Positions 39,811 through 40,493 of a DNA stretch of 44,405 bases are shown here, piece after piece. Each line of letters starts with the position of its first letter. Position 1 is the first letter of the stretch. The notes beneath the pieces are model-generated. The model saw nothing but the letters and a program-made list of their open reading frames with translations. It was not told where the DNA came from and made no database searches. The position numbers and the translations under genes are program-made. Origin of the DNA: Escherichia phage EC3-1; sequence record PQ571288.1, one strand, 5' to 3'.

Positions 39811-39841
39811 AAAAAAAATCCCGGCTGGGTCAGGGCCGGGA
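39811..39841 (-). terminator. Rho-independent terminator (stem TCCCGGC/GCCGGGA followed by eight U)
   Basis: Read directly; ends the lysis-gene transcript and the candidate structured RNA. Confidence 0.7.
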
Positions 39842-39976
39842 TAAAACTGGAGAGCAGAGGGATGGAACAGGAGGTGTTAGGCGAGTAGTCAACTAGGGTC
39901 TGCCGGGCGCGCCGGAAAGTCACCGTGTGAGTCGCGTACTCACTCCCGCTAATTTAACGGTTCACTACTCGCCTAA
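39842..39976 (-). ncRNA. Candidate structured small RNA (about 160 nt) between endolysin and terminator
   Basis: 13-bp inverted repeat TTAGGCGAGTAGT/ACTACTCGCCTAA encloses two internal hairpins; promoter-like TTGACA, 17-nt spacer, GATACT at 39980..40008; strong terminator at 39811..39841; no ORF. Confidence 0.25.
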
Positions 39977-40004
39977 CTAAGTATCGTCGGATTGGTCTTA
40001 GGTG

Positions 40005-40493
40005 TCAACCTTTCACCGCGCGCCCAATAGCCTCAGCCTCCTGCCACGGTTTACCGTCGAACAAGGCCAGTCGTCCAGCTGTGCGGCGACGCAGGCCAAG
40101 TAACGGTTTGCCGTTCTGGTTGATGAATAGCGCCAGCTTAGCCCGCAGCGTCGTGGTATCACCGGAACGCAGCGCCTTACCTGTGCCAGTAGTAGCGGCA
40201 ATCACGCCCGCACCAGCGTTGTATACCAGGTCGCACACTGCATCGAACTGTGCCTGTGTCAGTGAATGGTGTGCCGCCGCGTCAACCGCAGCTACGGCCT
40301 TAGCCATATCACGATTCAGTAACAGGAGTCCTTGTCCCTTCGTAATCTTCTGTCCTTCATACACATGTGGGCCATAGCTTCCGTAGCCAATAGTCAGGTA
40401 CTTCTCGTTCGGCGTAGCACGATACGCAGTTCCCCGGAATCCCTCGAACGCCGCGGTAAAATGCAATCCATTATCTGAAATGTTTCGAGACAC
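40005..40493 (-). CDS. Endolysin, phage lysozyme (glycoside hydrolase family 24-like)
   Basis: EGFRGTAYRATPNEKYLTIGYGSYG lysozyme signature; GTG start at 40493 with RBS GGAGGG (track opens at 40544). Confidence 0.8.
   Translation of the reverse strand: MSRNISDNGLHFTAAFEGFRGTAYRATPNEKYLTIGYGSYGPHVYEGQKITKGQGLLLLNRDMAKAVAAVDAAAHHSLTQAQFDAVCDLVYNAGAGVIAATTGTGKALRSGDTTTLRAKLALFINQNGKPLLGLRRRTAGRLALFDGKPWQEAEAIGRAVKG

Follow-up and report, generated by a model that had tools for sequence, protein, structure and literature searches.

A conserved promoter-to-terminator unit next to the endolysin gene of a Kagunavirus-like coliphage: a candidate small RNA with a rare palindromic insertion

The P1-T unit downstream of the endolysin gene

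We analysed the intergenic region downstream of the endolysin gene in a 44,405-nt stretch of DNA from Escherichia phage EC3-1 (PQ571288.1), a Kagunavirus-like coliphage of the Guernseyvirinae; this 44-kb stretch, at its full length, is referred to as the window, and the phage as the source phage. The region comprises a promoter-like element (P1), a palindromic insertion of 102 nt, a C/U-rich stretch and an intrinsic terminator (T), and is followed by a second promoter (P2) and a conserved 5' untranslated region (UTR). The surrounding genes are all on the minus strand. In the direction of transcription, and leaving the insertion for the next section, the features are:

40005..40493, minus strand: endolysin gene, 162 amino acids (aa) from a GTG start; PF00959 Phage_lysozyme, E 1.9e-25
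39980..40008, minus strand: promoter P1, TTGACA, 17 nt, GATACT; sigma-70-like, scoring 10 of 12
39843..39875, minus strand: C/U-rich, G-poor single-stranded stretch (CACCUCCUGUUCCAUCCCUCUGCUCUCCAGUUUU), a candidate seed or binding region; 33 nt, conserved in Kagunavirus and Jerseyvirus
39811..39842, minus strand: intrinsic terminator T, 8-bp stem AUCCCGGC/GCCGGGAU, 9-nt loop, U8; conserved helix
39760..39788, minus strand: promoter P2, TTGACT, 17 nt, TATATT; placed to drive the cluster of small open reading frames (ORFs) ahead of the terminase genes
39724..39753, minus strand: conserved P2 5' UTR (..CGACAACGAGAACGGAGTAGAG..); a (GA)n run of variable length precedes the start codon (ATG) of a 65-aa ORF (39526-39723)

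A first-pass annotation of the window had placed a promoter-like element over the endolysin stop and a strong terminator at the far end of an ORF-free region. Both elements are present on the minus strand, and the interval 39811..40008 runs exactly from the P1 -35 hexamer to the end of the U-run. The TGA stop codon of the endolysin gene sits within the -35 hexamer, and there is no terminator between this gene and T in the source phage. Nine promoter-like sites in the whole window score at least 10 of 12, P1 and P2 among them, and T is one of two strict terminators; a simple terminator scan missed it because its loop is 9 nt long. The identical 162-aa endolysin product is also called on public contigs. 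Downstream of T, a minus-strand block leads from small ORFs to the terminase and portal genes, with the gene of the terminase large subunit at 35899-37149.

The intergenic region matches about 450 phage records. The best of these matches, to Kagunavirus isolates, reach 95-97% identity, and each is split in two, with about 100 nt left out between the pieces. With the empty module (the region lacking the insertion) as query, 444 phage records were retrieved, 403 of them as a single uninterrupted match; by name the 444 are 325 Salmonella phages, 101 Escherichia phages, 11 Kagunavirus and 7 others. A further search of IMG/VR gave 36 loci with an empty site. Alignment with DUEC01, BUCT823, K1G and five Jerseyviruses indicates that P1, the C/U-rich stretch, T, P2 and the P2 5' UTR are all conserved.

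Among 35 distinct sequences from two genera, neither the -35 (TTGACAC) nor the -10 (GATACT) element of P1 changes; variation is seen in the spacer and in the first bases to be transcribed. At the level of sequence, fixed hexamers around a variable spacer are the pattern of a promoter that is used. Conservation begins exactly at the -35 hexamer, regardless of the upstream context, which is the end of the endolysin gene in the source phage, DUEC01 and the Jerseyviruses, and an extra ORF with a terminator in K1G, BUCT823, L003 and L049. The module is intact even where this other ORF and terminator separate the endolysin gene from P1.

The extra ORF, found in L003, L049, L002 (BUCT823) and L011 (K1G), is short and has its own terminator (AAACCCGGACCGCTAATCCGGGTTTTATTTT). 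In DUEC01, a gene for an HNH homing endonuclease is located between the holin and endolysin genes. The junction between the lysis genes and P1 is an indel hotspot.

The C/U-rich stretch retains four blocks in Kagunavirus and Jerseyvirus (CUCCUG, UCAUCCCUCU, CUCC and UUUAU), shows indels of 4 nt and of 1-2 nt between relatives, and is predicted to be unpaired whether the insertion is present or absent. The helix of T is paired in 100% of cells across the 35 distinct sequences, and the changes within it are one compensatory replacement of a C-G by a U-A pair and one of G-C by G-U. T is preceded by a U-rich tract (AGUUUUAU or UUUAU) and followed by a tail of U8-U14, the length of the T-run among relatives being 7-14. 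In the relatives, the RNA predicted from this unit is about 68 nt long, with a stretch of 36 nt that is unpaired, poor in G and rich in C/U (AUCACCUCCUGUUCCAUCCCUCUGCUCUCCAGUUUUAU) leading into the terminator hairpin and U8; outside the terminator this core is predicted to be unpaired.

The indels of 4 nt and 1-2 nt, together with the variable T-run, exclude a coding function, and for the same frame-breaking indels a small protein was ruled out as an identity of the region. The description of the region as free of ORFs therefore holds in practice: the ORFs that can be read are only mechanical, one of 44 aa from a GTG (39923..39789, minus strand), which has no preceding Shine-Dalgarno sequence, and one of 30 aa on the plus strand. 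From this comparison, the stretch from P1 to T is probably a conserved, non-coding small-RNA (sRNA) unit of the Guernseyvirinae.

Two individual records touch on this unit. In Salmonella phage vB_SenS_AG11 (L006; NC_041991.1, 39926-40045), RefSeq places a 39-aa hypothetical protein, AG11_59A, across the unit from P1 to the terminator; because of the frame-breaking indels among relatives, we judge that it is probably a false gene call over non-coding sequence. In L050 (1297-1525; Logan SRR35866977), P1, CACCTCCT, CTCTGCTCTCCAGTTTTAT and the terminator are kept, and the middle of the C/U-rich tract is exchanged, GTTCCATCC being replaced by AAGTTATCAACT. This replacement suggests that constraint on the tract acts on the pyrimidine blocks on either side of the exchanged middle.

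The P2 hexamers are identical in all eight aligned sequences that cover them, and the AG11 record annotates P2 as a promoter. The 5' UTR behind P2 is kept even where the first downstream ORF differs. Within it, the (GA)n run (39726-39734, minus strand) lies between a GGAG Shine-Dalgarno sequence and the ATG at 39723, and its length differs among close relatives (GGAGTAGAGAAGATG, ..GAGAGAAATG, ..GAGAGAGAAATG, up to ..GAGAGAGAGAGAAATG), which shifts the spacing between the two from about 8 to 15 nt. This microsatellite may tune translation of the first P2 gene.

A palindromic insertion in four genomes

Between P1 and the C/U-rich stretch, the source phage carries the following elements:

39876..39977, minus strand: palindromic insertion of 102 nt, specific to this lineage and placed 2 nt downstream of the P1 -10 hexamer
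39960..39977, minus strand: terminal inverted repeat, 5' arm, with GTTAGGCGAGTAGT as the perfect part, followed by G and AAC; 17 of 18 complementary
39903..39960, minus strand: interior with three short predicted hairpins (39946-39960, 39927-39943, 39903-39915), not robust
39876..39893, minus strand: terminal inverted repeat, 3' arm, reading GTT and G followed by ACTACTCGCCTAAC; contains the 11-mer CTAGTTGACTA

It was this part of the region, as a 13-bp inverted repeat enclosing two internal hairpins, that had drawn attention in the first-pass annotation. The repeat is real and slightly larger than described, with 14 perfect base pairs (39876-39889 / 39964-39977) that extend to 17 of 18 (39876-39893 / 39960-39977). 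Its arms are 66 nt apart, and it is the longest spaced inverted repeat of the window; by our own arithmetic, about 0.03 perfect 14-bp repeats within 200 nt would be expected by chance in 44 kb. The two internal hairpins are present as well, formed by GTGAGT/ACTCAC (39927-39943) and CCGG/CCGG (39903-39915). They are short enough for a chance origin, and are without comparative support.

Two other palindromic sites were seen elsewhere in the window. An inverted repeat at 37690-37702 / 37751-37763 (13 nt, 92% complementary, 48 nt between the arms) spans the start of a 194-aa ORF upstream of terL, with a promoter-like site at 37786-37757. The other site, at 17985-18018, is a hairpin of 15 nt with a loop of 4 nt; it lies just upstream of the start of the minus-strand ORF 15305-17935, between this ORF and ORF 18213-18728.

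The insertion alone folds at a predicted -43.7 kcal/mol (z = -4.1). Because the opposite strand folds equally well (z = -4.0), this score mostly reflects the inverted repeat. The closing stem is present in all predicted folds and is, in these models, the only robust part of the structure; the interior of the minimum-free-energy fold is altered by a single substitution in L003. Three substitutions distinguish the three alleles, all of them in the interior: one falls in a predicted loop, one at an unpaired position, and one, in L051, disrupts a C-G pair in hairpin 1, with no compensating change. Among the three alleles, none of the 35 predicted pairs covaries. In the predicted fold the insertion forms a domain of its own, in which neither the conserved pyrimidine tract nor the terminator is involved.

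The lysis transcripts of the source phage must cross the insertion, since no terminator lies between the endolysin gene and T. The region could thus be the mere 3' UTR and terminator of the lysis operon, with P1 an incidental match to the consensus, and the 17/18-bp stem of the insertion could be an RNase III site affecting the stability of the lysis mRNA, comparable to lambda sib. The closing stem is long enough for a plausible RNase III substrate, and the lysis transcripts of the source phage run through it. As a description, '3' UTR of the lysis transcript', which the first-pass annotation had offered, is literally true here; it leaves the conserved P1 unexplained. K1G, BUCT823, L003 and L049 end the lysis transcript further upstream and yet have P1, the tract and T intact, and the P1 hexamers are invariant over two genera around a variable spacer. 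We regard this explanation as quite unlikely.

Every empty site of the Kagunavirus type that was read has the sequence GATACT-TAAAT-CACCTCC, and the filled site reads GATACT-TA[GTTAGG...CCTAA]CACCTCC. The AAT of the empty site is replaced, and a target-site duplication is therefore absent. The insertion is missing from DUEC01, BUCT823, K1G, the Jerseyviruses and the 36 IMG/VR loci. Its carriers are four distinct genomes, namely the source phage, L003, L051 and L053 (identical to L055); L053/L055 and L051 were found via protein-anchored look-ups and L003 via a pattern scan of IMG/VR. The same look-ups gave four contigs that carry the identical downstream 65-aa gene yet have an empty site. Relative to the source phage, the flanks of the other carriers are 98%, 97% and 87% identical, and their insertions 100%, 98% and 99%. 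The insertion occurs once per genome, at a single site, and has the same site and orientation in all four carriers.

Searches for relatives of the insertion elsewhere were negative. BLAST with a 107-nt element gave no match in 50,697 phage records, 5,426 complete Escherichia coli genomes and 72,556 plasmids. Exact-pattern scans (for the terminal inverted repeats (TIRs) separated by a gap, an interior 25-mer, and a TIR plus subterminal 18-mer) returned one contig from IMG/VR, namely L003, which carries the element at the site seen in the source phage, and nothing from 185,579 GTDB representative bacterial and archaeal genomes. Two matches from a metagenome scan, L004 and L005, were discarded as unrelated high-GC 'GTAGGCGAGTAG' repeats that are not homologues. 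Inserts of other kinds at the P1 site were sought in IMG/VR, where gaps of 42-103 nt occurred at no locus and gaps of 107-137 nt at the filled locus only. A near-isogenic relative with an empty site was not found, the closest empty sites having flanks 82-97% identical.

A local duplication was rejected as the source of the insertion: the only string found to be shared is the 11-mer CTAGTTGACTA, which recurs in the -35 region of P2 with a window-wide E of 0.78. This 11-mer is notable because CTAG is depleted about 8-fold in the window (22 sites against 173 expected), and it is too short for a conclusion. Three of the 22 CTAG sites lie within 120 nt (39773, 39789 and 39893); P2 holds two of these and the insertion the third.

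The insertion was also compared with known classes of elements. A conserved structured RNA (Rfam family, tRNA, tmRNA, riboswitch or ribozyme) was rejected on the lack of a model match, the absence from more than 470 relatives and the lack of covariation. Rfam gave no match at the gathering threshold in the whole window and only sub-threshold terminator look-alikes at E <= 10 on 39750-40050, and ARAGORN called no tRNA or tmRNA genes; of the checks proposed by the first-pass annotation, those with Rfam and for tRNA came out negative and that for covariation ranged from uninformative to negative, and the structure of the folded element is not conserved in relatives. Read 5' to 3', an integron attC site begins with RYYYAAC and finishes with GTTRRRY; the termini GTTAGGC and GCCTAAC of the insertion are in the opposite order on both strands, no L boxes were seen by eye, and this identity was dismissed. 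An invertible promoter switch was set aside on the single orientation in all four genomes and a segment of only 66 nt, with no recombinase gene seen, although no systematic search for one was made. A retron msr-msd would be longer, and no reverse transcriptase gene was seen, likewise without a systematic search. A mimic of a CRISPR repeat was rejected, as we saw no likeness between the insertion and the type I-E or I-F repeats of E. coli.

An intergenic palindrome close to the packaging genes could also be a DNA site that is essential in cis, for example pac, cos or an origin, a possibility raised in the first-pass annotation. The 444 phage records and 36 IMG/VR loci keep the flanking module without the insertion, and since the inverted repeat is absent from more than 470 relatives of the same genome layout, it is not an essential packaging or replication signal. 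Its arms, 66 nt apart, would also make a poor cruciform or protein-binding site. We consider such a role extremely improbable.

More weight can be given to the idea that the insertion is itself active, as an element resembling a miniature inverted-repeat transposable element (MITE) or as an acquired RNA domain (a decoy, a processing site or a protein-binding site) spreading among Kagunaviruses. The terminal inverted repeats that define MITEs are present (14 bp perfect, 17 of 18 extended), site and orientation are constant, and among the four genomes the flanks differ by up to 13% and the element by at most 2%. On the other hand, the AAT is replaced without a target-site duplication, there is one copy at one site, the interior substitutions are uncompensated, and no family, parent or other copy was found in the IMG/VR, phage, E. 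coli, plasmid and representative-genome collections, for which reasons a MITE or other non-autonomous transposon was rejected. Homologous recombination of the highly conserved flanking module explains the spread equally well. An active insertion therefore seems to us rather unlikely. It is a rare orphan without a detectable source, and a curiosity rather than a conserved structured RNA.

A candidate small RNA

The sequences show the composite anatomy of the region, how it is conserved, and that the insertion is rare and lacks homologues; transcription from P1, a function as sRNA and any effect of the insertion are inferred. We favour, at odds slightly better than even (about 55%), the interpretation that the stretch from P1 to T is a conserved non-coding candidate sRNA unit, to which the 102-nt insertion is a dispensable 5' add-on in four genomes. 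The proposal of a phage sRNA in the first-pass annotation thus survives for the module, which is conserved and self-contained, and loses the structured part on which it had been built, which is the insertion found in four genomes only.

In the relatives, P1 would give an RNA of about 68 nt with pyrimidine-rich nucleotides, the U-rich tract, the terminator hairpin and a U8 tail, and the pyrimidine tract would resemble an anti-Shine-Dalgarno sequence (CACCUCCU). Such a layout is typical of base-pairing sRNAs of the Hfq type. P1 of the source phage lies partly within the end of the endolysin gene, and the RNA made from it would end at the terminator that also serves the lysis mRNA. Firing about 6-8 nt past the -10 hexamer, P1 would start the RNA inside the 5' arm, so that the transcript of about 165 nt would have its 5' end hidden in the 11-14-bp stem at the base of a separate domain. 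The insertion is placed in the most variable part of the unit, and the conserved tract and T would remain free. It could alter protection or decay of the 5' end, or create a processing site of the RNase III type. As modelled, the insertion is compatible with function of the module, and most likely it is an addition to the 5' end that is tolerated or modulates the RNA, rather than a structured RNA with a function of its own.

We also considered a regulated leader or attenuator, in which the tract would be the site of a factor that allows read-through at T and the insertion a neutral passenger; the short RNA could then be a by-product like the lambda 6S RNA from PR'-tR'. The module lies directly upstream of the minus-strand block of small ORFs, terminase and portal genes, and the unit accommodates a large insertion between promoter and tract. 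The tract also contains a weak boxA-like string (UGCUCUCCAGUUUUA in Kagunavirus and GCUCCUUUA in Jerseyvirus). However, the downstream genes need no read-through of T, because the strong, invariant, sigma-70-like P2 follows it immediately, and the 8-bp GC-rich stem of T with its 8-14 U suggests efficient termination. No antiterminator came to light, although no search aimed at one was made. A leader is in our view unlikely.

Several points weigh against the candidate sRNA. The -10 hexamer of P1, GATACT, is imperfect. A duplex scan of the pyrimidine stretch against the whole window gave nothing above background, and its pairings at the ribosome-binding sites of terL and of P2 are unexceptional and lie within the background. 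The sole Rfam similarity, to RF02278, reaches 25 bits, where the gathering score is 50, and is mostly driven by the terminator. The identity of the module across divergent phages could reflect recombination of a mosaic segment rather than selection, and it is the subfamily-wide pattern by which we argue for constraint on the module. Our literature searches turned up no sRNA described for Kagunavirus or Jerseyvirus, and a Kagunavirus RNA-sequencing paper gives gene-level data and reports no sRNA.

One pairing was noted as a lead only. The start of terL (ATGA, overlapping the stop of the upstream ORF; 37146-37155, minus strand) is directly preceded by GAGGAGGAGGG, in which GGAGGGAUGA complements the best-conserved block of the tract (UCAUCCCUCU), with a duplex energy within the background.

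A bolder variant of the sRNA interpretation, which we hold to be improbable, is that the insertion is a new small mobile or exchangeable 5' RNA domain on a subfamily-wide sRNA that reprograms translation through an anti-Shine-Dalgarno-like seed. Such a domain, spreading between Kagunaviruses, could act in processing, stability or protein binding, or as an anti-defence decoy.

In our preferred interpretation of a conserved sRNA unit, the object of interest is the P1-T module rather than the hairpins, which belong to a minor, dispensable and rare element. The module is a new candidate for a phage-encoded sRNA, and is unannotated in phage records or miscalled as a small coding sequence. The Guernseyvirinae (Jerseyvirus and Kagunavirus) are among the commonest isolates for biocontrol and therapy against Salmonella and E. 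coli. More than 440 genomes with an sRNA-like unit that has its own promoter and terminator make a cheaply testable candidate regulatory RNA of virulent phages, and the natural presence or absence of the 102-nt 5' domain offers a ready comparison for effects of 5' structure on such an RNA.

Relation to known elements and small RNAs

The enterobacterial repetitive intergenic consensus and intergenic repeat unit (ERIC/IRU) sequences, the repetitive extragenic palindromic and bacterial interspersed mosaic elements (REP/BIME) and MITEs are intergenic palindromic repeat elements of enterobacteria. Like them, the insertion is about 100 nt long, intergenic and co-transcribed, has terminal inverted repeats and varies between strains. 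In contrast to them, it is single-copy, lacks a target-site duplication, belongs to no family that we found, and is absent from the E. coli genomes searched.

Among RNA families, the best sub-threshold Rfam match of the P1-T unit is the Betaproteobacteria toxic small RNA RF02278, which it resembles in a pyrimidine-rich UCUCC stretch followed by a terminator with a CCCGG stem. RF02278 belongs to another host clade, and the unit is not a member.

The oop and 6S (PR'-tR') RNAs of lambda are short, promoter-proximal, terminated phage RNAs. As with these and with phage-encoded Hfq sRNAs (described in bioRxiv 10.1101/2024.10.31.621285), the unit would give a short RNA that runs from a consensus-like promoter to an intrinsic terminator at a junction of phage gene modules. 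It differs in that it has no sequence similarity to them, that a second promoter follows T, and that no antiterminator or antisense target is evident.

The type I 3'-UTR sRNAs MicL and DapZ are Hfq-type sRNAs that arise from mRNA 3' ends and have their own promoter. The P1-T unit is similar in its layout, with P1 in the end of the upstream ORF, the -35 hexamer over the endolysin stop and a terminator in common with the mRNA, and in its composition, in which an unstructured 5' region leads to a U-rich tract and a hairpin with a poly-U tail. The class of 3'-end sRNAs is the subject of a review (PMC9438474). Unlike the MicL/DapZ type, the P1-T unit is encoded by phages (virulent siphoviruses), is known from its sequence, and has a C/U-rich, anti-Shine-Dalgarno-like tract; and in the K1G-type relatives it stands alone behind another terminator.

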